Positions 13,813 through 43,482 of a stretch of 64,000 bases of DNA are shown in pieces. Positions within the stretch are counted from its first letter, which is position 1, and each line of letters starts with the position of its first letter. Source of the DNA: an uncultured Muribaculaceae bacterium (GTDB lineage: Bacteria > Bacillota_I > Bacilli_A > RF39 > UBA660); NCBI GenBank assembly GCA_964616485.1, contig CAZTRB010000005.1:11592-75591 (forward strand). Direction: 5' to 3'. A program made the position numbers and the translations under genes. Below the pieces are notes generated by a model, which was not told where the DNA came from, did not search any database, and saw only the letters and a program-made list of their open reading frames with translations.

Positions 13813-13847
13813 TAGCAAGAAAAAAGATATCTTTTTCAAGATATCTT
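13813..13847 (-). terminator. rho-independent terminator of the giant prepilin-like gene (overlaps its stop codon)
   Basis: Two copies of the palindrome aagatatctt separated by tttc (13824-13847), preceded on plus by an A-run 13816-13823. Confidence 0.6.
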
Positions 13848-16800
13848 ATCCCCAATTTTCACAACCACAAGCTGCTGTTCTACAAGAATTATTTCCTCCT
13901 ACACAAGTACTATAAGTGTATAGACAATTATTCCATCCACATGCACTATGTTGACAATAATAGTATCCGGCACATCCACAGCAATCATTATAACAGGTTG
14001 CAGCTTCCTCACCAGAAACACAACATGTTGTCGAAGTTTTATACCATGTTTGGCCACCCGAACTAGGTTTGCTACTTGCACACTTAGTTCCGCACCCATA
14101 ACCTCCTGTGTTTTGGTAACATTCATAGATATTTCCTTTAGTTTTACAATATGTTCCGCAACAAGAGTAACTAGTACATCTTTTATTTCCAGTACATCCG
14201 CATCCGGCAGTATAACAAGAATTATATCCTCCAACACAAACGGACGGGTTACCTGTTAAACAAGAATTCCATCCACAATTAGCATGTTGACAACTCTTAT
14301 TGGTAACACAACTCGATGTTATAGAACAAGTTCCTGTATTACCCGCTCCATCTGTAACCGTGTATGTCTTTGTACCTTTAACATTTGAATCATTATATGT
14401 AGCTGGAGATACTCCACTTGCATTATCAGAAGTTGTAACTTTTACGGTTATTCCATTAGCTCCATTCGCTGTTTTAACAGCAGTACAAGTAGGATTAACT
14501 GTATCTCTTTTTATCGTAAATACATTAGATGCAGCAGATGCATTACCTGCATTGTCAATTGATCTTACATAGAAATTCCAATTCCCATCCCAGTTTATCG
14601 TCCATGGATTTGACATTGCTGTCCAATTTGCAGCATCATGACTATACTGATAACTAGCAATTCCAGAACCAGTTCCGTCCGAAGATGATGCAGTTATTAC
14701 AACATTAGATTTTGTCCAAGTGCCTGAAGTATAAGAACCTAGATTGATCGTTGGTTTTGAAGGTTTTGTTGCATCTCTCTTTATTGTTACGACATTTGAA
14801 TTATCACTTATGTTACCAGATTTATCTATAGCCCTTACATAAACGTTCGTAGATATATCTGAACTAATTGTCCATGGATTCGACATCGTCGTCCATCCCG
14901 ACGTCCCATTAGTACTATATTCATATCTATCTAAGTTAGTATCCGATGAACTCGCTGTTATGACAATATTTTGATTTGACCATGTATTAGATGTATATGT
15001 AGTACCATCTGCTTTTTTCAAGGTTAAAGTTGGTTTCGACGGTTTCGTCGCATCTCTTTTAACATTAAAGACGTTTGACACATCACTTATATTACCAGCA
15101 CCATCAGTAGACCTTACATAGTAATTACTTTCGACATCTGTACTAATTGTCCATGGATTTGCCATATTTGTCCATCCTGAAGTTCCATTAACACTATATT
15201 CATATTTACTTATTCCTGAAATATTATCAGTTGAACTTGCCGTTACGACTACATTGCCAGAGGTCCATGTCCCTGAAGTATAAGAACCTAAATTGATCGT
15301 CGGTTTCGATGGTTTAGTAGCATCCCTTTTGATAACTACGGCATTAGATACATCACTAACATTTCCTGAGGAATCGATTGCTCTTACATAGATGTTTGTC
15401 GAAGTATCCCAGTTAATCGTCCATGGATTTGTCATAGCCATCCATCCCGATGTTCCGGTCGTACTATATTGATATCCAGCTAAGTTATCATCAGTTGAAC
15501 TTGCTGTAATGATTATATTTTGATTTGACCATGTATTAGATGTATAAGTAGAATTGTCTGCTTTCTTCATTGTCAATGTTGGTTTTGATGGTTTCGTCGC
15601 ATCTCTTCTAACAATAAATGGATTTGAATTATCACTTACGTTACCAGCACCATCAGTCGATCTGACATAGTAAGTTTTATCGGTATCGAAGTTTATCGTC
15701 CATGGATTTGACATCGTCGTCCATCCTGAAGTTCCATTGTTACTATATTCGTATTTGCTTATTCCCGAAATATTATCAGTTGAACTTGCCGTTACGACGA
15801 CATTACCAGAAGTCCATGTACCAGAAGTATACGAACCTAGATTAATCGTCGGCTTCGATGGTTTAGTACCATCTATTTTTACCGTTTGGTTGTTCGGACA
15901 AGTAACACAGTTTCCTGCTCTATCACAAACCTCGCCCGGTCCAGCCGTCGTCGTATTTATATCACTAGTATAAGGTTTAGTAATTGTCGTATTTACACAA
16001 CCACTACCACTATCACTACAAGTACCAATTATATTTACAGTCGTCTTACTCCATGCAGAACTTCCACCACTACTTACACAAGTTGGTTTCGTCGTATCGA
16101 TCGTATCGACGACTACCGCTTTATTAGTAACATGTCCAGCTTGGTCCTTAACCCACACATAATATGTACCATTATCAGAAGCTATATTTGGAACACCAAT
16201 TCCAAAACTAGTTCTTGCCGATATAGCGGTAAATGTCGGTTGTGTCGTCGAACTCTTATTTATACCGTAACCGATTATTCCTGAATTAGTATCTGTTCCG
16301 GTAAATACTATCGTTCCGTTAAGTCCGTCTTGACCAGTATCGATTATCGTCGAGTACGCTACATCCCAACTTACTGAAGTACCAGAACCCGTCAAGTAAA
16401 CGTGTCCGAAAGTCGAGAACGTTCCCGAACTACCCGCTTTTTGAATATAGATATATTCTGCCCAATCTCCAGTTCCAGCTTGTGGAGTGATCCAGTAGAC
16501 GCTTGAACCTGTACCGGTAGAATTAGAAGCTCTTTGAATAGTATACCCAACTGGTATCTTTGCAATTATTCTATGAGCATATACAGCATTAGCTCTCGAA
16601 GTTACAGTTTGAACATAACCTCCTAATCCAGGAGAACTGACACCATTTGTCGTTATTCTCATAACGTATGAACCATATGGGTTAGATTGAGCTACTCTAG
16701 CGTGAGTAACAGTACCATTTCCACTATTATTATATACGCTAAAGTTATTTGTCCCAGAAGCAAACGTCGGATCTTTGAATAACGGAGTCCCTGATATTGC

Positions 16801-18897
16801 TTCTGATATAACCGGAGCATTTTTATCTATTCTTACGATTTGGTCAGCCTGGCAAGTAGTACAGTTTCCTGCATTATCACAAACTTGTCCAGGTGATTCA
16901 TTAGTCGAATTTATATTAGAAGTATATGTTTTCGTTACCGTCGAATTCACACAACCACTATCAGCGTCATTACACGTTCCAGTAATCGTGACATTCGTCG
17001 TTTTCCATGTAGCGCTTCCACCACTATTTATACATGTTGGTGGTTCGTTATCGGCAGTTATCGTTTGGTGATACCATCCGCCACTATTTGGCGATTGAGT
17101 TATGACGTTACCAGCATTATCAACTAGTCTCGTATAAACGGTATATACTCCTCCAGGTAAACTAACAACGTGTTTATTTTGTCCAGTAATAGATGTAATG
17201 CCACCTACAGCAACACCGTTTCTTTCCATCTTGACTTGGAACTCTTTAATACCACTCAAATTATCAGCAACCGTAATTGTCAACGTTTGATTAGCACTAT
17301 ATACTCCCGTTAATAAGCTATAACTTGCAGTAGGAGCCGTCTTGTCGATTCTAGAAATCGTTACTGATGAAGGATCAGATGATAAACCGACAACGTTTCT
17401 CGTACGAACTTGAGCATTCGTTACATTTGACGAATAAATATTATAATTTGTCGATTGCCAAGAAGCGCCATCATTAAACGAATACTCAGTCGTTCTAACT
17501 AATCCAGCTCTTGGAATCAAGTTAACTTTTACATTGTTCTTAGTCCAGATACCTGGAGAAGCAGCGACTAAATCAATTCTAGAAACATTGTAAGATACAC
17601 CACTTAGTGCTCCTAAAACTAATCTAAAGTTAGAGTATTGTCCAACCGAAGGTAAAATAAACTCTATGTCTCTAGTACCTTGAATCATTAATGCTGATAC
17701 TGAGAGTTCATTCCCATTTTGATCTTTAAAGTAGACTCTACCCGTCGTCGTCGTTGGAATATTAGTATTTAAAGTCACAGTTAATTTCTTAATACCATTA
17801 AATGTCGGATACGAAGCAGTACCAAACGTTATAACTGGGTTTGTCGTAGTCGTCGTTAGTATTGTACCCGCTAAATTTAACCCCGAAAGAGTATATTCAT
17901 ATTGGTTAGGGAACAATTGATATGCATACTCAACATCAAATTCTGGTTTTGGAACACCCACTCTTACGTCGATTGAACAAATCCCCTCATTACCCGCTTC
18001 GTCTTTAACATAACCTACGACTGTCGTAAGTCCCATATCTAATTTAAGACTATCTTTTTTATTATAATCAATATTCTTTATACTAGTACCAAGTCCATAA
18101 GTTAAAAGTCCACTATCAGCATCATCTTTAGTATCGAACTTAACATAAACGTCTCCCGAATACCACCCTAACGCTTCTAAGTTTCCGCCATCTCTAATAA
18201 GTGTACAAGTTGGAGGAGTCTTATCGACATATACTTTTACCGGACAACTAGTTTGATTTCCACTCTTATCAACTATATTAATAAAACTCTCAGTAGTAGT
18301 CGTACCAAATGTCTTAGAGAATCTAGCTAAACGACAACCACTAGTTTGGTCACTACAACCAACACTAATTGTTCTATTTTCCTTAGTCCATGTAGTAGAT
18401 TCACCTATGACACTACCACATACCGGATTATCATTATCAGATTCATACTTAGAACAAGCCGAACCTTCAGTAGAATAATTTTCACAATACAAACACGCTC
18501 TATATTCGTAGTCACCACTAACTTTGCTTACCTCAACATAACTAAGTAAACTATTACAAAATCCATCTGTTTCCGGATCTTTTAATTCATCAGAGTAACC
18601 TTTTTCAATAACATCACTCAAATAGACAATAGATCTATCTCCATCGCCTGGTAAATTACAAGTGTAATCATTATTAGCAATACAATCAACAACCATGTTA
18701 TTCGTAGCTGTTTGCATATTCTTTTCATAAGCTAAATAAGTATTATCCTTACTACTTCCAATATAATTAGAAATAGCCGGAACTGTAATGATTGCCAATA
18801 TAGCAATTATCACGATAACGGCGATTACTTCTATTAAAGTAAACCCTTTCTTTTTCTTGGCTTTTTCCAAAATTTTACTAACAGTTTTCTTTCGCAT
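13846..18897 (-). CDS. giant modular type IV pilin-like protein (~1683 aa): class III signal peptide, cysteine-containing HYR/Ig-like modules, five tandem Ig-like repeats and a cysteine-rich C-terminal domain
   Basis: MRKKTVSKILEKAKKKKG|FTLIEVIAVIVIIAILAIITVPAI is a canonical prepilin leader, with Gly at -1, Phe at +1, Glu at +5 and a ~21-residue hydrophobic helix. AAGGAG RBS 8 nt before ATG 18897. The ORF-track upstream extension is translation of the promoter. Repeats of ~88-95 aa begin DATKPSKPT. The last ~160 aa contain about 34 Cys. Confidence 0.8.
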   Translation of the reverse strand: MRKKTVSKILEKAKKKKGFTLIEVIAVIVIIAILAIITVPAISNYIGSSKDNTYLAYEKNMQTATNNMVVDCIANNDYTCNLPGDGDRSIVYLSDVIEKGYSDELKDPETDGFCNSLLSYVEVSKVSGDYEYRACLYCENYSTEGSACSKYESDNDNPVCGSVIGESTTWTKENRTISVGCSDQTSGCRLARFSKTFGTTTTESFINIVDKSGNQTSCPVKVYVDKTPPTCTLIRDGGNLEALGWYSGDVYVKFDTKDDADSGLLTYGLGTSIKNIDYNKKDSLKLDMGLTTVVGYVKDEAGNEGICSIDVRVGVPKPEFDVEYAYQLFPNQYEYTLSGLNLAGTILTTTTTNPVITFGTASYPTFNGIKKLTVTLNTNIPTTTTGRVYFKDQNGNELSVSALMIQGTRDIEFILPSVGQYSNFRLVLGALSGVSYNVSRIDLVAASPGIWTKNNVKVNLIPRAGLVRTTEYSFNDGASWQSTNYNIYSSNVTNAQVRTRNVVGLSSDPSSVTISRIDKTAPTASYSLLTGVYSANQTLTITVADNLSGIKEFQVKMERNGVAVGGITSITGQNKHVVSLPGGVYTVYTRLVDNAGNVITQSPNSGGWYHQTITADNEPPTCINSGGSATWKTTNVTITGTCNDADSGCVNSTVTKTYTSNINSTNESPGQVCDNAGNCTTCQADQIVRIDKNAPVISEAISGTPLFKDPTFASGTNNFSVYNNSGNGTVTHARVAQSNPYGSYVMRITTNGVSSPGLGGYVQTVTSRANAVYAHRIIAKIPVGYTIQRASNSTGTGSSVYWITPQAGTGDWAEYIYIQKAGSSGTFSTFGHVYLTGSGTSVSWDVAYSTIIDTGQDGLNGTIVFTGTDTNSGIIGYGINKSSTTQPTFTAISARTSFGIGVPNIASDNGTYYVWVKDQAGHVTNKAVVVDTIDTTKPTCVSSGGSSAWSKTTVNIIGTCSDSGSGCVNTTITKPYTSDINTTTAGPGEVCDRAGNCVTCPNNQTVKIDGTKPSKPTINLGSYTSGTWTSGNVVVTASSTDNISGISKYEYSNNGTSGWTTMSNPWTINFDTDKTYYVRSTDGAGNVSDNSNPFIVRRDATKPSKPTLTMKKADNSTYTSNTWSNQNIIITASSTDDNLAGYQYSTTGTSGWMAMTNPWTINWDTSTNIYVRAIDSSGNVSDVSNAVVIKRDATKPSKPTINLGSYTSGTWTSGNVVVTASSTDNISGISKYEYSVNGTSGWTNMANPWTISTDVESNYYVRSTDGAGNISDVSNVFNVKRDATKPSKPTLTLKKADGTTYTSNTWSNQNIVITASSSDTNLDRYEYSTNGTSGWTTMSNPWTISSDISTNVYVRAIDKSGNISDNSNVVTIKRDATKPSKPTINLGSYTSGTWTKSNVVITASSSDGTGSGIASYQYSHDAANWTAMSNPWTINWDGNWNFYVRSIDNAGNASAASNVFTIKRDTVNPTCTAVKTANGANGITVKVTTSDNASGVSPATYNDSNVKGTKTYTVTDGAGNTGTCSITSSCVTNKSCQHANCGWNSCLTGNPSVCVGGYNSCYTAGCGCTGNKRCTSYSCCGTYCKTKGNIYECYQNTGGYGCGTKCASSKPSSGGQTWYKTSTTCCVSGEEAATCYNDCCGCAGYYYCQHSACGWNNCLYTYSTCVGGNNSCRTAACGCENWG
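14500..15870 (-). repeat. five tandem ~265-285 bp intragenic repeats (alternating two subtypes) encoding Ig-like modules
   Basis: Recurring ...ggtttcgatggtttagtagcatc... blocks at about 15834, 15571, 15290, 15036 and 14741. Protein repeats are TKPSKPTINLGSYTSGTWT.../TKPSKPTLTxKKAD... Confidence 0.8.
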
Positions 18898-18931
18898 AAT
18901 AAAGCTCCTTGTATTATCTTTTATATATAAC

Positions 18932-18960
18932 ATTTTAATATCTTTATACATAATAGTCAA
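18932..18960 (-). promoter_or_regulatory. sigma-A-type promoter of the prepilin-like gene (TTGACT-17-TAAAAT)
   Basis: Reverse complement of agtcaa at 18955-18960 gives the -35. Reverse complement of atttta at 18932-18937 gives the -10. The spacer is 17 nt. Confidence 0.5.
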
Positions 18961-30435: not shown

Positions 30436-30790
30436 AAATAATATTAATAAGCCATGTTCTGTTCCTATTTCTAGGCGACAAACATTTATCTACCGAATTA
30501 CTTCAGTCCTTAACTCCGTTTGATTCCTTCGTTAAAGTTCCTCTACCGAAATTTGAGTTTCTCGCTTGCGGGGTTTATCACGTTCCACTTCCATCGTTTC
30601 CAACTTGTTCGTCACTATGACACTTTATAGCTAATCTAGTCATATCCGAAGACTTAGACTATTTCGCCGCCGTTAGTTACCTACCTAGAGTTATTTTTTC
30701 CTCTAGCACAAACACTACAGACATCTCAGCCTGTGCGAGCATGGACTTTCCTCTATATTATTAAAAATACAGCGTTTGTCTTAATATTAT
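30436..30790 (-). ncRNA. rnpB: RNase P RNA, Bacillus-type (type B)
   Basis: Minus strand reads ...GAGGAAAGTCCATGCTCGCACAGGCTGAGATG..., which is near-identical to the B. subtilis rnpB 5' core, and ...ACAAGTTGGAAACGATGGAAGTGGAACG...ACATGGCTTATT at the 3' side. P1 forms between ATAATATTAAG (5') and CTTATTAATATTAT (3'). Lies next to gpsB, as in Bacillus. End coordinates are +/-10 nt. Confidence 0.85.
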
Positions 30791-38018: not shown

Positions 38019-39059
38019 TTACATAATTAACGCTTTTTCATTCAAAACATAGCGATAAGCCTTATTTTCATGGATAATAATAAACGTACTTTCTCTTTTC
38101 CTCTTACTCTCAAAAAACAAGATAGGTATCCTTAATTCATCTTCGATATCGATTAGATCTTTAACGTTAGTTATATCCATTACATTAAATTTACTTAAGT
38201 CTGGTTTTTTAGCCACTTCAGCGATAACATTGGCATAAGTAGTTAAGATCCTATCTCTTTCTTTAGTGTAAGGGTCAGCGTTTTTAAGGTGTAGTACTCT
38301 CTTTAAATAATAGAAGAATAAGACAAATGACACCATTACTAAGAATATTCCAATAGTAAGACCGTACTGATTAACGATGTTATCTTTACTAAAAACATTT
38401 TTATTCTCATTGAAAGATCCCGTTTTATCGACACTTACTACCGTATCCAAAAGAGGAATTTTAGCTGTCATAGTGTGAAGATCAGCGACTTTCTTAGCCG
38501 TTTCTTTAGTCGTAATAAGATTGTTTATTTCAAAGACAACTTTTATATAAGCCTCTGTTAAGATAGAACTTTCTTTTCTAAACTCCAAAGCTTCTTCTTG
38601 ATATTCTTTATAATCGATAGTCGTTTTATAATCAAAGAACACGACTCCTGTCTCTTGTTTTATGACTTTATTTTTAGGAAACAAAACGTCTTCTCTCTTC
38701 CATAATTCTTCCGTTTGAAGGCCGTCTTTATAAGTGTTAACTAAAAACAAAGATATAGAATATTCCGCTTCAGAATCAATTAGATTAATAGACGTAAGGT
38801 CATAAGTAAATTTTAAATCGATATAGTCGATATATTTAGCTAGAATCTTATTCTTATTAATATATTCATCTTTATATAAAAAGTTATCTTTTAGTCTAAA
38901 ATTATACTCGATATCACCGAAAGATTTATAATCGACAACGATATTATTTTTGTTATTTTCTATACTCGTACTATCATAAGTTATAATTGATCCGGCAAAA
39001 AAGAGTAATACCCCTAGTAATAATAATACTATACTTTCCTTTTCTTTAGTTCTTTTCAT
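38019..39059 (-). CDS. bitopic membrane protein of unknown function (last gene of the WXG/TasA/SipW operon)
   Basis: N-terminal TM helix, ~200-aa extracytoplasmic region, second TM (LTIGIFLVMVSFVLFFYYL) and a ~100-aa cytoplasmic tail. Confidence 0.5.
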   Translation of the reverse strand: MKRTKEKESIVLLLLGVLLFFAGSIITYDSTSIENNKNNIVVDYKSFGDIEYNFRLKDNFLYKDEYINKNKILAKYIDYIDLKFTYDLTSINLIDSEAEYSISLFLVNTYKDGLQTEELWKREDVLFPKNKVIKQETGVVFFDYKTTIDYKEYQEEALEFRKESSILTEAYIKVVFEINNLITTKETAKKVADLHTMTAKIPLLDTVVSVDKTGSFNENKNVFSKDNIVNQYGLTIGIFLVMVSFVLFFYYLKRVLHLKNADPYTKERDRILTTYANVIAEVAKKPDLSKFNVMDITNVKDLIDIEDELRIPILFFESKRKRESTFIIIHENKAYRYVLNEKALIM

Positions 39060-39073
39060 CTTGACCTCCTATT

Positions 39074-40213
39074 TTAATTATTTAAAAGTTCATTAAACCA
39101 TACTGTAGGATATCCAAAATATGGTAGAGAAACATTATATTTTGCAACTATGTCTTCCGGATAAACTCTCCAGTTATCTTCTGACGAATTATTATCTCCT
39201 TTTGTTATGAGATAATCTATATCACCATTAGATAATCTACTTATATAATTAATCCTGTGAACGACATAGGTATTATCGTATCTATAATAGATTATATCAT
39301 ATTGAACTAAATTATTAATATCTTTATCACTTAATTTTTCTAAAATTAATAAATCTCCTCTTTTAAAAGTATCTTTCATACTATCGGATAAAACGGCCAT
39401 CGGATAATAATTAAATACTCTTAAGATAAACATTATTAATACCGATACGACGATGGCAAGAATAGTTATACCACCATTCTTTTCATCGATAAACCTTCTC
39501 GTTCTAGAATCGCTATTATTAACCAAGGTACTTATATTAAAATAGACGAACATCGGTAGCAACAAACCGAATAGAGTCGTTACAATCCAGGGATGGCTAG
39601 GTAAAATAGGTAAGATGATTAGTAATAGTCTCGTCCATACCAAGTAGATTATAGTCGTCTTATACTTCATATTTCTTTGTAAATAAGTCATGACATAACT
39701 AGTTATAATAAGCGGAAGGACTAATGAAGAAAACATCTTAAAAAGATAACTAAACTCACTTACAGAGAAAATATATAAGACATTCATACTACTGAAAGCC
39801 AATAAAAATGAAATGATACTATTATTAATTAAAGTATCTTTGGAGTTGGTAATTAACTTATATCTTATATACTCGTTTACCGTTATCGTTCCAATAGTAG
39901 TAAAAACAACTTTTAAAAGAGTAATTAAAGACCTATTATATATCGATTTCTCATAACCAAAGAAAAGACCAGACATAAAATATATTAAAGAATATATTAT
40001 TAAGATTATTATTATGTTTTGAGTCTTATCGTAGTTATCTTTGCTCTTAGTATATTTAGTATCGAATAAAAAGAAGAAAGTAACTGCTATTATCGATAAA
40101 ATTATCATATTCATTATTCCTGCATACACAGAGAAGATAGAAGTAACTAGATAATTTTGAAATATTATATATAAAAACAGTATTATATATGTTAAATATA
40201 TTTTCTTCATCAT
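39074..40213 (-). CDS. archaeal/ER-type signal peptidase I (SipW-like) fused to an N-terminal polytopic (~8 TM) membrane domain
   Basis: C-terminal domain AVLSDSMKDTFKRGDLLI ... HRI ... TKGDNNSSED resembles the SipW SGSMEP/His/GDNN catalytic blocks. AGGAGG RBS immediately before ATGATG at 40213/40210; the ORF-track extension is translation of the RBS. Confidence 0.65.
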   Translation of the reverse strand: MMKKIYLTYIILFLYIIFQNYLVTSIFSVYAGIMNMIILSIIAVTFFFLFDTKYTKSKDNYDKTQNIIIILIIYSLIYFMSGLFFGYEKSIYNRSLITLLKVVFTTIGTITVNEYIRYKLITNSKDTLINNSIISFLLAFSSMNVLYIFSVSEFSYLFKMFSSLVLPLIITSYVMTYLQRNMKYKTTIIYLVWTRLLLIILPILPSHPWIVTTLFGLLLPMFVYFNISTLVNNSDSRTRRFIDEKNGGITILAIVVSVLIMFILRVFNYYPMAVLSDSMKDTFKRGDLLILEKLSDKDINNLVQYDIIYYRYDNTYVVHRINYISRLSNGDIDYLITKGDNNSSEDNWRVYPEDIVAKYNVSLPYFGYPTVWFNELLNN

Positions 40214-40310
40214 GGTCCTCCTATTATAAATATTATATACTACAACAAAGAAAAAAAACAACTTTTACAGTCTTTTGTACTGTTTAATTGTTTTTTTGTA
40301 AACTTATCTT

Positions 40311-40826
40311 TTAACGAACTACATAGTCAAGTGTCAGCCTCAAGTCTTTTGTTAAGTCTTCAGCGGTAACTTCTTCAGTCATATCTGGATTATAATAAGC
40401 TATAACTTCAAATAATTTGCTTTGTCCGACTTGTAATACTTCACCGGCTTCTATTCCGTTTATTGTATAAATAATAAATCCTTCTCCATAGTCTTTAGGA
40501 TTTAATTCAATGGCATTTAATTTAGCATCTAGGTTTCCTTGATTTCTAACATTAACAACATATTTAACGGTATCACCAGGATCGACAAAAGTAGCGCTAA
40601 ATATAGCGGTCTTAGAATCTAAAACGGTCGATTCTAAACTTTTTCCACTTCCCTCAGTCTCTGTGCTATTAATTGCCGTTATCGCGACGTCAAAGTCAGG
40701 GTTAACGATCGTAGCACTTCCTTTTATTTCTAACTGCGTAGATAAAAGAGCATACCCTACTGACACAAAAACAAGTGCAACTAGTAAAGCTCCAATCATC
40801 GTATTTTTCTTATCTTTATTGCTCAT
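40311..40826 (-). CDS. TasA/camelysin (peptidase M73)-like secreted protein, putative SipW substrate
   Basis: Lys-rich N-terminus plus hydrophobic signal KKNTMIGALLVALVFVSVGYA. Core FVDPGDTVKYVVNVRNQGNLDAKLNAIEL resembles the CalY/TasA LKPGDSVKKEF..QNSGSL block. AGGAGGA RBS. Confidence 0.5.
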   Translation of the reverse strand: MSNKDKKNTMIGALLVALVFVSVGYALLSTQLEIKGSATIVNPDFDVAITAINSTETEGSGKSLESTVLDSKTAIFSATFVDPGDTVKYVVNVRNQGNLDAKLNAIELNPKDYGEGFIIYTINGIEAGEVLQVGQSKLFEVIAYYNPDMTEEVTAEDLTKDLRLTLDYVVR

Positions 40827-40880
40827 ATAATCCTCCTATAATAAATTTTAATATATATGGCTTTTATTGTCAATTATTCG

Positions 40881-41948
40881 CTATGAATCTACTACTTTTA
40901 ATTTAAGACGAATCATACTCTTAACCTGATTAAATTGTTCAGTAGAATGAAACATTGTCTGTGAAATTGTCGTTGAACCTACTTTATCACCAGTTACGAC
41001 CCATTCGTAATAGTTTGTTCTTAAGAATGTACTAGGGTCTTTTCTATTTACATAAGGTTCAGAAACAGCTGTCGCATAGTTTTGCCAACCTTTAGCACCA
41101 TCAGCCGTCGTCCTTTGAAGCTGTTTTATTTTACCAGCACTAACTGGAAGTTTTACGATTATTCTAATAGTCTCTCCCTTTTTTACGACTATTTCATCAT
41201 CTCTTTTATATTCTTTTCCGTTATACCAAAGAGTAGGAGTTTGGGCTACTTTACCTATTTTAGGTGAGATATAATAATCATCATTATCAATATCTCCGAC
41301 AAAAGCCCTAGCTTCTTCATCGAGACTAAGATTAGTACTAGTTATTTGACTATTGACTATCTTTTTAACTTCTTCTTCCTTTATTTTAATCTCTTCTATT
41401 TTAGTAGTAGTAACTCCTTTAATAGAGGCTATCTCTTTATCAATACTCTCTTTTAAAATCGTCAAAGTTCTAAAGTCACTATCGACATTCGTCGTTAATT
41501 CATCTTTAGTAGATTGATAAGTCTTATAAGCACTAGTTAAAGTAGTCGTCTCTTCATTATTACTATCTAACTCGTATTTAGGTGAAGGTTCTCTTAGTTT
41601 ATCAAGAGTCTCTTTATTTTTCTCATACTGTAAATCTAAATCTTTAAAAGTCTCTAACATCGATACTAGATTGTTTACTATGCGTTCTGAAACTGGAATC
41701 AATGCTTGTTCGACATTTTTATTAAGATTTTTAATAGCTTCTATTATCTGTGGTAAAAACTCGGACTTTAAATACTCTTGTCCCGCTTCTTTCCAATTCT
41801 CACCGCTCATCGAATCTAATAGATTTGTGTCTATATCAACTATTTTAGTAACATCTTCAAGCACCCTTTTCGCTTTGTTAACAAGTTCTTTTTCACTTTT
41901 GAGTTTTTCATAATAATTATCGTAAGGATTAATATAAAAAATTGCCAT
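40881..41948 (-). CDS. two-domain protein: N-terminal helical LXG/WXG-like domain plus C-terminal beta-rich domain of unknown function
   Basis: N-terminal LDSMSGENWKEAGQEYLKSEFLPQIIEAI resembles the LXG-domain consensus (..G.aadaikaYfe..h.Pllqal). Central coiled-coil region. C-terminal ~150 aa beta-rich. Confidence 0.4.
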   Translation of the reverse strand: MAIFYINPYDNYYEKLKSEKELVNKAKRVLEDVTKIVDIDTNLLDSMSGENWKEAGQEYLKSEFLPQIIEAIKNLNKNVEQALIPVSERIVNNLVSMLETFKDLDLQYEKNKETLDKLREPSPKYELDSNNEETTTLTSAYKTYQSTKDELTTNVDSDFRTLTILKESIDKEIASIKGVTTTKIEEIKIKEEEVKKIVNSQITSTNLSLDEEARAFVGDIDNDDYYISPKIGKVAQTPTLWYNGKEYKRDDEIVVKKGETIRIIVKLPVSAGKIKQLQRTTADGAKGWQNYATAVSEPYVNRKDPSTFLRTNYYEWVVTGDKVGSTTISQTMFHSTEQFNQVKSMIRLKLKVVDS

Positions 41949-41964
41949 TTAATCACATCCTTTA

Positions 41965-42288
41965 TTAATTTATATCTAATTTGCTAGTATTGTCTTCTAA
42001 AAATTGAATTCGATTTCTTTCATCGGTATTATAAGCTTCGATTGCTTCTTCTAAAAACAAAATCAAACTCTCTAATTCTTTTATTTCTAAAGGAAAGTTT
42101 TCACTTATCTTTAAATACTTGTCATACATAATTTGTTGAGTCTTACCAACCCAAACATCAGTTTCTCCATTTATTTGCTTTAGATTATGATCTAATTCAT
42201 CGAATTTACTTTCAAGACTAAACTTTTTTTGTTTTAAAAGAGCTACTACTTTTTCAAGTTCTTTAGTATTAATATCTAAATTCATCAT
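41965..42288 (-). CDS. WXG100-superfamily small helical protein
   Basis: 107 aa, predicted helical hairpin with central W-V-G (ETDVWVGKTQQIMYDKY). ATGA overlap with the upstream gene. Confidence 0.55.
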   Translation of the reverse strand: MMNLDINTKELEKVVALLKQKKFSLESKFDELDHNLKQINGETDVWVGKTQQIMYDKYLKISENFPLEIKELESLILFLEEAIEAYNTDERNRIQFLEDNTSKLDIN

Positions 42289-42587
42289 AGCTTATCACCG
42301 TCTTTTCTCATTTCAGCAACAAACTCATTATTTCTCTTAGTGTATACCCCCATACAATAGTCTATCTTTTCATAGATTCTTTTCAACCTATGATTCTCAT
42401 ATTTACTTTTTGAAATAAATCCACGATACTTATCACAAAAAGCATCACTATCGACGCCTTTCCAATTTTGTTCGATTATCGGAAGTAAGTCTTCTATTTC
42501 TTTAATTACTTTTTCTATCTCTTCATACTTAGTCTCAATAGATAACGAAACACTATCCATTTCTTGAAATTTAACTTTTAGTTTCAT
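42285..42587 (-). CDS. WXG100-superfamily small helical protein
   Basis: 100 aa. IEQNWKGVDSDAFCDKYRGF matches the WXG100 hallmark (W-x-G followed by a ..F...F helix). AAGGAG RBS. Confidence 0.6.
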   Translation of the reverse strand: MKLKVKFQEMDSVSLSIETKYEEIEKVIKEIEDLLPIIEQNWKGVDSDAFCDKYRGFISKSKYENHRLKRIYEKIDYCMGVYTKRNNEFVAEMRKDGDKL

Positions 42588-42588
42588 A

Positions 42589-43482
42589 TTAAACTCCTTG
42601 CTTCAATACATCGATATATATTTCGTTAGTCAATAGGGTTTCAACGGTAATATCTAACTTTTTAGCGATGTTATTGATATAGTTTTTATATATACTCATC
42701 TCTTTATTAGTTAAGCCATCCGGTATTTCAGGAGCATAATAAAGAGAGTGAAAAGTTTTAAACAAAAGAGTCTTATTTTTATCCTCGATTAATAGTTCGG
42801 AAAAAGTAATATTACTTGATTCTGCTACTTTTTCTAGATGTTCTTTAGTTATTAAAAAAGTCAGGCTTTGTTCAAAAATATTAAAATCTTTGTTTTTTGC
42901 TAACAATTCTAAAAGTTGTTTTTGAATGACAAAATTATCTTCTGTAGAAAAAACTAAATTTGGTGCGAATCTTTTTAAGTAGAAGATTAAGGCCTTAGTG
43001 TTTTGGCCTCCAAATAAAAGACGATTTAAATTAAATGGGTCTTTTTCGTTAACGTTTTGAACTAGCAAACTTTGTCCAAACGAATCGAAATCAGCAAGGT
43101 CCGTAATCTGGCTATTAGGAAGCATGCTTGGTCCACCTACAGTCTCTCCAATTACACCACTAAATCCACCACCTCCAGTATAGCCACTATAACCACTACC
43201 ATTATTAGTATCATCTTCGACAATCTTACCAAGATTCTCTTCACTAGTTATCATGTCTTCACTATGTCCTCTAAGTCTTCTAATTAATTGTGTTTTATTT
43301 GTAGCAAGACTATCTACGTCTTTTTTAATATCTTCGGCAACAGTCGATAGTTCTAATTCTTTAAATACAGCAAAATCAGTAGCCACCGAAGTAGCGACTG
43401 CTTCCAAAAGGGCCGAAGTCTCTGATAACTTACTAATTACTTCTTCTAATTCTGCAGAGTTATAAATTATTTCATTTGTCAT
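42589..43482 (-). CDS. hypothetical protein with an N-terminal WXG100-like helical hairpin, Gly-rich linker and ~170-aa C-terminal domain
   Basis: N-terminal 90 aa helical (SAELEEVISKLSETSALLEAVATSVATDFAVFKELE). Linker GSGYSGYTGGGGFSGVIGETVGG. Only 18 bp downstream of the der stop. Confidence 0.45.
   Translation of the reverse strand: MTNEIIYNSAELEEVISKLSETSALLEAVATSVATDFAVFKELELSTVAEDIKKDVDSLATNKTQLIRRLRGHSEDMITSEENLGKIVEDDTNNGSGYSGYTGGGGFSGVIGETVGGPSMLPNSQITDLADFDSFGQSLLVQNVNEKDPFNLNRLLFGGQNTKALIFYLKRFAPNLVFSTEDNFVIQKQLLELLAKNKDFNIFEQSLTFLITKEHLEKVAESSNITFSELLIEDKNKTLLFKTFHSLYYAPEIPDGLTNKEMSIYKNYINNIAKKLDITVETLLTNEIYIDVLKQGV

Follow-up and report, generated by a model that had tools for sequence, protein, structure and literature searches.

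Gene organization of the locus

The subject of this analysis is a gene for a polytopic signal peptidase, encoded on the reverse strand of a 64,000-nucleotide (nt) stretch of DNA (hereafter the window; contig CAZTRB010000005.1, positions 11,592 to 75,591, assembly GCA_964616485.1) from an uncultured bacterium of the RF39 lineage. The gene lies in a co-directional array that consists of der, a gene for a 297-amino-acid (aa) protein, two WXG100-like genes, genes for a 355-aa and a 171-aa protein, the peptidase gene, a DUF5305 gene and hbs. The peptidase combines an N-terminal domain of eight transmembrane (TM) helices with a C-terminal catalytic domain of the endoplasmic reticulum (ER)/archaeal type (Table 1). 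It is one of a large class of polytopic signal peptidases of the ER type that is essentially undescribed and has been noted once, in a 2026 preprint discussed below.

The 5' region of the gene reads AGGAGG-ACC-ATG-ATG; an AGGAGG immediately before ATGATG had been described in an initial annotation of this DNA that was made from the sequence without database searches. Counted from the end of the Shine-Dalgarno sequence, the spacing to the first ATG is 3 nt and that to the second 6 nt. Of the two, the second is the likelier start codon; it is also used in an identical database protein (P0001, 378 aa) and in the identical gene of an independent contig (L001); an extension of the open reading frame (ORF) to a TTG codon at 40261 is unnecessary. 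Residue numbers refer to the 378-aa product throughout.

Table 1. Coordinates of the peptidase gene, its domains and the adjacent elements in the window
Feature	Coordinates	Strand	Basis or remark
Fused signal peptidase, coding sequence (378 aa + stop)	39074..40210	-	ORF list, ribosome-binding site, identical database protein P0001
Alternative in-frame ATG of the fused peptidase	40213	-	3 bases upstream; product would be 379 aa
Ribosome-binding site AGGAGG of the peptidase gene	40222..40217	-	sequence
N-terminal 8-TM domain, aa 1-241	39488..40210	-	predicted CPBP/type II CAAX-protease-like fold, degenerate catalytic motifs
Glu113 codon	39872-39874	-	
Arg116 codon	39863-39865	-	
TM9, the peptidase's own anchor, aa 246-266	39413..39475	-	follows a Lys/Arg-rich cytoplasmic linker; AlphaFold2 helix 246-262, hydrophobicity, positive-inside count
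Extracytoplasmic ER/archaeal-type signal peptidase I catalytic domain, aa 267-378	39077..39412	-	
Ser277 codon	39380-39382	-	
His318 codon	39257-39259	-	
TKGDNN..D block, aa 336-345		-	
171-aa secreted protein, presumed substrate	40311..40826	-	ORF, composition, conserved neighbourhood
DUF5305 protein, 346 aa, presumed accessory subunit	38019..39059	-	Pfam DUF5305, E 9.8e-13
Promoter-like site TTGACA-17-TAAAAT, 11/12 matches	40845..40873	-	consensus scan; just upstream of the 171-aa gene

The peptidase domain and membrane topology

The C-terminal ~130 aa of the protein constitute an intact signal peptidase I of the ER/archaeal type, which MEROPS classes as S26B. The TIGR02228 hidden Markov model (HMM) matches aa 250-372 with a score of 68.8 bits (cut-off 51.85), and Pfam Peptidase_S26 scores 32.2 (cut-off 22.9). 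Both the Ser/His catalytic pair, located in the SxSM and HR blocks, with His in place of the bacterial Lys, and the aspartates of the GDNN..D block are present; S277, M278, H318, R319, G338, D339 and D345 are 100% conserved among 120 family representatives that share 21-35% identity with the query. The predicted structure of this region has the signal peptidase fold, with SEC11A and SipA as structural matches. The three peptide blocks quoted in the initial annotation (AVLSDSMKDTFKRGDLLI, HRI and TKGDNNSSED) are all found in the ORF translation, and the HMMs and the structural model agree with its description of a Ser/His signal peptidase of the ER/archaeal (SipW/Sec11-like) type fused to an N-terminal 8-TM domain. 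Strict identity with SipW does not hold. Because the score against the SipW equivalog HMM (NCBIfam NF046067), 57.8 bits, is far under the cut-off of 190, the fused enzyme is SipW-like in type and not a SipW orthologue, and is a member of the broader TIGR02228 family.

In the AlphaFold2 model, the N-terminal domain comprises helices 2-25, 27-48, 59-84, 95-121, 127-149, 153-180, 183-199 and 208-233, which are followed by the Lys/Arg-rich linker, the anchor helix (246-262) and the beta-rich catalytic domain. This gives nine TM helices in total, eight of the N-terminal domain plus the peptidase anchor; the final amphipathic helix (aa 367-377) is too short to cross the membrane. The catalytic domain is placed outside the cell because 15 Lys and Arg residues fall on the predicted cytoplasmic loops versus 2 on the outer loops, and the protein is accordingly predicted to have its N-terminus inside. 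The outer loops are short in the model (~8-10 residues each), and two of them are paired as a small sheet (86-88 with 202-204). The topology prediction and structural comparison proposed in the initial annotation thus yield nine TM helices and the matches to SEC11A and SipA. Its estimate of about eight TM helices for the membrane domain is borne out; its length of about 270 residues is not, the model giving ~245 aa.

The N-terminal membrane domain

The N-terminal domain is modelled as an eight-TM alpha-helical bundle of the Rce1 type that matches the CPBP/Rce1 intramembrane proteases as well as three pseudoproteases related to them, SpdC, APH-1 and TMEM147. In Foldseek comparisons, SpdC was matched with a probability of 1.00 (TM-score 0.52 on the target) and Rce1 with 0.91-0.94, at E-values that are non-significant alone (see below); these were the sole credible membrane matches. 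The CPBP/type II CAAX proteases and their non-catalytic relatives are a recognized fold group (Pei et al. 2011, as cited in PMC12260438). The model points to a CPBP fold for the N-terminal domain, and shared ancestry with CPBP is likely. Scans of this domain in 50 family members against Pfam and NCBIfam returned noise only (DUF6541, Per1, MerF). A hand-made CPBP consensus used as bait recovered neither Rce1 nor SpdC from the PDB sequences, and a motif search of the window and the related loci found no separate CPBP gene.

Active CPBP enzymes carry the motifs EExxxR, FxxxH and HxxxD/N (PMC12260438). Among the 120 representatives, the first of these has a possible counterpart in TM4, x-E113-x-x-R116, with E113 conserved in 98% and R116 in 97% of the sequences, whereas TM5 contains F137-x3-[D/E]141 (74% and 70%) where CPBP has FxxxH. 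There is no conserved His in the N-terminal domain, the highest column reaching 34% His, so that FxxxH and HxxxD/N are both absent. The other conserved positions are G81, N101 (99%), Y91, P201 and P204, several of which are located in two short outer loops. CPBP members with comparable decay, namely SpdC, LnsB and SpbR, are non-catalytic (PMC12260438), and to judge from its motifs the N-terminal domain most probably is non-catalytic as well. With Val at position 101, Leu at 137 and Ser at 141, the window protein is an even more decayed member of the family; in P0002, its closest relative, residue 101 is Ala. Several of the few polar residues conserved in the N-terminal domain are gone from this sub-lineage, and its presumed fibre subunit also lacks the aromatic residue 2 and acidic residue 4 described below.

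Conservation of the fusion

The two-domain architecture is found throughout a large protein family. A search with the complete protein yielded 354 homologues, nearly all of 370-400 aa, which align end to end (~99% query coverage) at 28-47% identity. A profile of the N-terminal 245 residues alone retrieved, at E<=1e-3, representatives of 1,575 clusters formed at 50% identity, including 1,210 at E<=1e-10. Fused length (355-430 aa) was observed in 120 of the best 150 of these 1,575 representatives; another 29 are shorter and fragment-like, ending at arbitrary points inside helices or the peptidase domain. No stand-alone N-terminal domain that would represent a split orthologue was found among the same best 150, where the short entries look like contig-end fragments. 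Altogether, the fusion is kept at 21-47% identity across hundreds of proteins. The closest named relatives come from metagenome-assembled genomes labelled 'Bacilli bacterium', Erysipelotrichaceae or Clostridiales. A tblastn search against plasmids matched the catalytic domain alone.

The fusion is the standard architecture of a large family without any characterized member. The comparison of fused and split orthologues suggested in the initial annotation shows the gene to be fused in the homologues examined, and the impression of a rarity given there is not sustained, considering the 1,575 N-domain cluster representatives and the mention of multi-TM signal peptidases in the 2026 preprint. The initial annotation had also considered that the extension might be common in many characterized SipW proteins: it is indeed common, but in a family that has no characterized member.

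One homologue (P0253, 655 aa) carries, in frame with the fused peptidase, a substrate-like protein that has a signal motif and a CBM2-like domain. The corresponding genes in a related locus (L009, 5185-7161) abut with zero gap (6000/6001). Either substrate and enzyme are genuinely fused here, or the gene call has read through from one gene into the next.

The presumed substrate and the DUF5305 protein

The gene neighbourhood of the peptidase was compared in eight loci, namely the window, L002, L004, L007/L008, L009, L010, L011 and L012, seven of which are independent of the window. In all eight, one to three small secreted proteins are encoded directly before the peptidase and a DUF5305 protein directly after it. 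Because small secreted acidic proteins and DUF5305 flank the peptidase in every one of these loci, the module matches the AbpX/Tafi-type fibre modules of the TasA superfamily.

In the window, the small protein is the 171-aa product of the upstream gene. Its signal peptide ends with ...VSVGYA and is followed by LLSTQLEIKGSATIV, an alternating, strand-like N-terminus; the mature protein (145 aa after GYA) has an isoelectric point (pI) of 4.2 and contains 15.9% Asp+Glu. The homologous small proteins of L002, L004, L007, L009, L010, L011 and L012 share this form of N-terminus, ...VGYA followed by [A/L][F/L]S..L.I.G[T/S]A. The residues after GYA are L-F-S-E in L007, A-F-A-T in L011 and A-F-S-N in L004. 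Neither sequence nor structure comparisons demonstrated membership of the 171-aa protein in the TasA superfamily, and its assignment as a TasA-type subunit is presumed from context and composition. The adjacent TasA-like substrate put forward in the initial annotation is the obvious substrate candidate, but its likeness to TasA was not shown by sequence or structure.

The DUF5305 protein contains two TM helices (~aa 9-28 and 232-252). Its gene starts 14 nt past the peptidase stop codon and has an AGGAGG of its own. The promoter-like site upstream of the 171-aa gene may mark the start of a three-gene unit; the evidence for it is weak because such sites are in total no more numerous than expected from shuffling. 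An A/U-rich hairpin lies in the 97 nt that separate the 171-aa and peptidase genes (40253-40296, reverse strand) whose 3' arm consists of eight U followed by CUUU; the folding of the gap has a z-score of -1.98 against shuffles. Such a hairpin may be a leaky terminator that gives a high subunit-to-enzyme ratio, although the indication is weak.

Relationship to known systems

The closest described counterparts are the signal peptidases of AbpX-type loci. In these loci a signal peptidase I is encoded together with a DUF5305 accessory protein, and a single sentence of a January 2026 preprint states that the AbpX-linked signal peptidases have ten TM helices (10.64898/2026.01.04.697558). The examples given are WP_338249487.1 of P. 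abyssi and A0A1M6GRN4 of C. amylolyticum, and A0A2R7Y7S8 is also named. The preprint assigns neither fold nor function to the extra helices and does not mention CPBP, CAAX or Rce1. To judge by that description, the AbpX-locus enzymes resemble the window protein in being TIGR02228-type peptidases whose TM helices are many, not just one or two, in being encoded beside small acidic subunits (pI ~4, ~15% Asp/Glu) and DUF5305, and in occurring in Bacillota. [quoted passage not shown]

In the Tat-fimbriae of haloarchaea, the TafD signal peptidase is needed for TafA processing in a DUF5305-containing locus (PMC11821415); genetic data show that TafD processes the subunit, and the DUF5305 protein TafG has been proposed to assist (PMC11821415, PMC12337348). 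The proposal of DUF5305 as a signal peptidase accessory was made in both of these studies and in the AbpX preprint (10.64898/2026.01.04.697558). Like TafD/TafG, the present module comprises a dedicated signal peptidase I and a DUF5305 protein, encoded alongside fibre subunits of the donor-strand type, which for the window protein is presumed. In contrast, TafD has four TM helices, an N-terminal peptidase domain, an additional C-terminal extracellular domain, Tat substrates and no CPBP-like domain.

SipW of B. subtilis (tapA-sipW-tasA) has ~190 aa and a TM helix at either terminus, whereas the window protein has 378 aa and nine TM helices. Compared with both SipW and SEC11, it adds the 8-TM CPBP-like domain, and its partner is DUF5305, not TapA. 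The eukaryotic complex of SEC11 with SPC12, SPC22/23 and SPC25 (PDB 7p2q) likewise contains an ER-type catalytic subunit amid extra TM helices and a partner with an extracytoplasmic beta-sandwich, of which DUF5305 is a suggested analogue (10.64898/2026.01.04.697558). The accessory helices of the window protein belong to the fused CPBP-like bundle and are unrelated to SPC12 or SPC25, and the analysis yielded no sign of membrane thinning or of selection by h-region length.

A short SipW-like peptidase was observed in another locus (L005, 6611-8681). This 251-aa protein has one N-terminal and one C-terminal TM helix and adjoins a protein of 219 aa whose N-terminus is of the camelysin/TasA type (weak Peptidase_M73 match); the locus includes neither a CPBP-like domain nor DUF5305.

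A relationship of the kind suggested by the fusion is known in trans from Staphylococcus aureus. [quoted passage not shown] In both cases a degenerate CAAX-like protein is paired with a single-pass partner, and the motif decay of SpbR resembles that of the N-terminal domain described here. The differences are substantial: these partners are separate polypeptides whereas the window protein is fused and has no Pfam CPBP match; SpsB is a bacterial P-type (Ser/Lys) peptidase, in contrast to the ER-type peptidase of the window; and SpbR inhibits its partner. No publication that links CPBP with TasA-type peptidases was found in the searchable literature, as far as which shows the assignment of the CPBP fold and the parallel with SpbR-SpsB are new.

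Proposed function and alternatives

We favour, with moderate confidence, the view that the protein is a dedicated fibre-subunit signal peptidase that has DUF5305 as its partner and carries the CPBP-like bundle as a non-catalytic intramembrane scaffold. The peptidase would process the small acidic secreted protein or proteins encoded directly upstream by cutting off the signal peptide, probably after ...VGYA, and cleavage would expose the strand-like N-terminus, as for donor-strand polymerization in fibres of the TasA/AbpX/Tafi type. The Ser277/His318 dyad with Asp339/Asp345, which nine TM helices precede, is predicted to face outward from the membrane, and the enzyme would have as its helper the DUF5305 membrane protein of the next gene downstream. 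The first eight helices, a CPBP/Rce1-like bundle that lost the His motifs, most likely would hold the anchor helix of the peptidase and/or the signal-peptide helix of the substrate, and perhaps the DUF5305 helices, and would fix in this way where the active site cuts and on which precursors. The architecture, the intact peptidase residues, the fold, the topology and the conserved neighbourhood are results of the analysis; the identity of the substrate, its cleavage site, the loss of catalysis in the N-terminal domain and the scaffold function are inferences.

Several observations weigh against parts of this view. The Foldseek E-values are 0.05-0.09, non-significant alone, and the CPBP link is made by the fold of a predicted model only: PF02517 (CPBP) is unmatched at E<=0.1 in 50 of 50 family members, and the N-domain profile retrieved no chain at E<=10 from the PDB sequences. 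The E-x-x-R motif contains a single Glu and its spacing is one residue shorter than in the canonical EExxxR, and the window protein has Val at position 101 (codon 39908-39910, reverse strand, TM4), where Asn is 99% conserved. The ~98% conservation of E113 and R116 could mean a retained chemical role, not a purely structural one. Finally, the aromatic-2/acidic-4 donor-strand residues are absent from the window subunit, which reads L-L-S-T after the presumed GYA cleavage site.

The chance that the long ORF results from a frameshift or mis-assembly of a membrane-protein gene and a short sipW gene, an error that the initial annotation had allowed for, is practically nil. Nothing was found in favour of it apart from a few shorter database entries (138-333 aa), full-length homologues down to ~28% identity keep the length and the order of the domains, and such an artefact is refuted by the identical gene on the independent contig together with the 354 full-length homologues. 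It is also very improbable that the N-terminal domain is a device for translocation or retention of the subunit, as the initial annotation proposed, or a platform for fibre assembly or anchoring. The N-terminal domain is always encoded with secreted subunits, and its conserved outer loops (G81-Y91 and P201-W208) could contact the nascent subunit. However, the subunits have ordinary Sec-type signal peptides, the extracellular loops of ~8-10 residues are too small for an assembly platform, and the CPBP scaffold/protease fold is no known channel fold. A translocation channel was rejected on these fold grounds, and coupling to translocation is unsupported, CPBP-type folds being scaffolds that bind TM helices of partners.

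More is to be said for a built-in regulator or inhibitor that gates the peptidase to cognate fibre subunits or to certain conditions and spares the general secretome, even if we regard this as rather unlikely. SpbR, which is alike in fold and in motif decay, binds SpsB and inhibits several cleavages (PMC12260438), and dedicated signal peptidases of TasA-type systems are known to be substrate-selective (PMC10269814). Conversely, a permanent 1:1 covalent inhibitor in >1,000 clusters fits poorly with the processing of an abundant structural subunit, and the fused protein has no regulatory input domain. Gating of specificity overlaps with the scaffold model, and sequence analysis cannot separate the two. 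The N-terminal domain might instead be a second active protease, a divergent glutamate-based CPBP enzyme that acts as a signal-peptide peptidase on the released signal peptides or makes a second cut in the subunit. Glu113 and Arg116 are 97-98% conserved, an acidic residue is found four positions after F137 in ~70% of the sequences, Glu is the catalytic base in CPBP enzymes (Rce1 structure 4cad, a structural match here), and high expression of a fibre subunit would leave many signal peptides in the membrane. Against this stand the loss of both His motifs, with no N-domain column above 34% His, the non-catalytic nature of the similarly decayed SpdC, LnsB and SpbR, and the window protein itself, which lacks N101, F137 and the acidic residue 141 and yet has an intact peptidase domain, suggesting that these positions are not essential chemistry. 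We consider a second proteolytic activity improbable.

The view of the bundle as a scaffold for a fibre-subunit peptidase can be extended to a broader, speculative and doubtful proposal. The fused protein and DUF5305 might form a self-contained prokaryotic signal peptidase complex in which a CPBP/APH-1-like bundle docks the signal peptide, and the fusion might serve as a Rosetta stone, pointing to an ancient and general partnership of degenerate CAAX-protease-like proteins with signal peptidases of both the ER type and the bacterial type, the latter as in SpbR-SpsB. In this context, Glu113 and Arg116 may recognize the charge of the signal peptide's n-region or even keep a second catalytic activity.

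The choice of precursors that end up in extracellular fibres (TasA, AbpX, Tafi) is made by dedicated signal peptidases, and bacterial CAAX-protease-like pseudoproteases are abundant and mostly without an assigned partner. A conserved covalent fusion, represented by >1,200 clusters at 50% identity, provides a defined 1:1 system for the question of how such a bundle positions or gates a peptidase, and it supports the SpbR-SpsB relationship from an independent direction. The CPBP fold also offers a candidate identity and a hypothesis for the extra helices of the signal peptidases in the AbpX preprint. For the window genome, the analysis annotates a putative three-gene surface-fibre module (subunit, peptidase and DUF5305).

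Other features of the window and of related loci

The region between der and the fibre module (40881-43482, reverse strand) contains the 297-aa gene, two ~100-aa genes that resemble WXG100/ESAT-6 (weak HMM matches, under the cut-offs) and the 355-aa gene, whose product has a helical N-terminal half and no signal peptide. The layout of this four-gene stretch resembles a cassette of an LXG toxin/type VII secretion substrate; no EssC-like ATPase was seen in the window. The WXG-like genes are an unrelated insertion because L010 and L012 lack the cassette genes in the same der-hbs slot. In these two loci, which come from spore-forming relatives, the fibre module (L010, 5106-9742; L012, 5092-9730) is located between spoVIF and spoIVA in the same der...hbs/cca slot. 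Both spoVIF and spoIVA are absent from the window; TasA was first described as spore-associated.

In L004 (10234-12627) and L002 (3378-6050), a protein of 800-890 aa is encoded directly after DUF5305. It has a similar N-terminal signal-like segment, beta-helix-like repetitive sequence and a Listeria-Bacteroides repeat (Flg_new, E 2e-11), and may be a fibre tip or adhesin component. No such protein is encoded in the window.

Elsewhere in the window, a 1,701-aa ORF (13846-18951, reverse strand) contains KKKGFTLIEVIAV at its N-terminus, a type IV prepilin-like leader and hydrophobic segment; it is unusually large for a pilin-like protein. Finally, a class B bacterial RNase P RNA (30444-30787, reverse strand, 296 bits) fits a low-GC Bacillota host, and the G+C content of the window is 31.6%.

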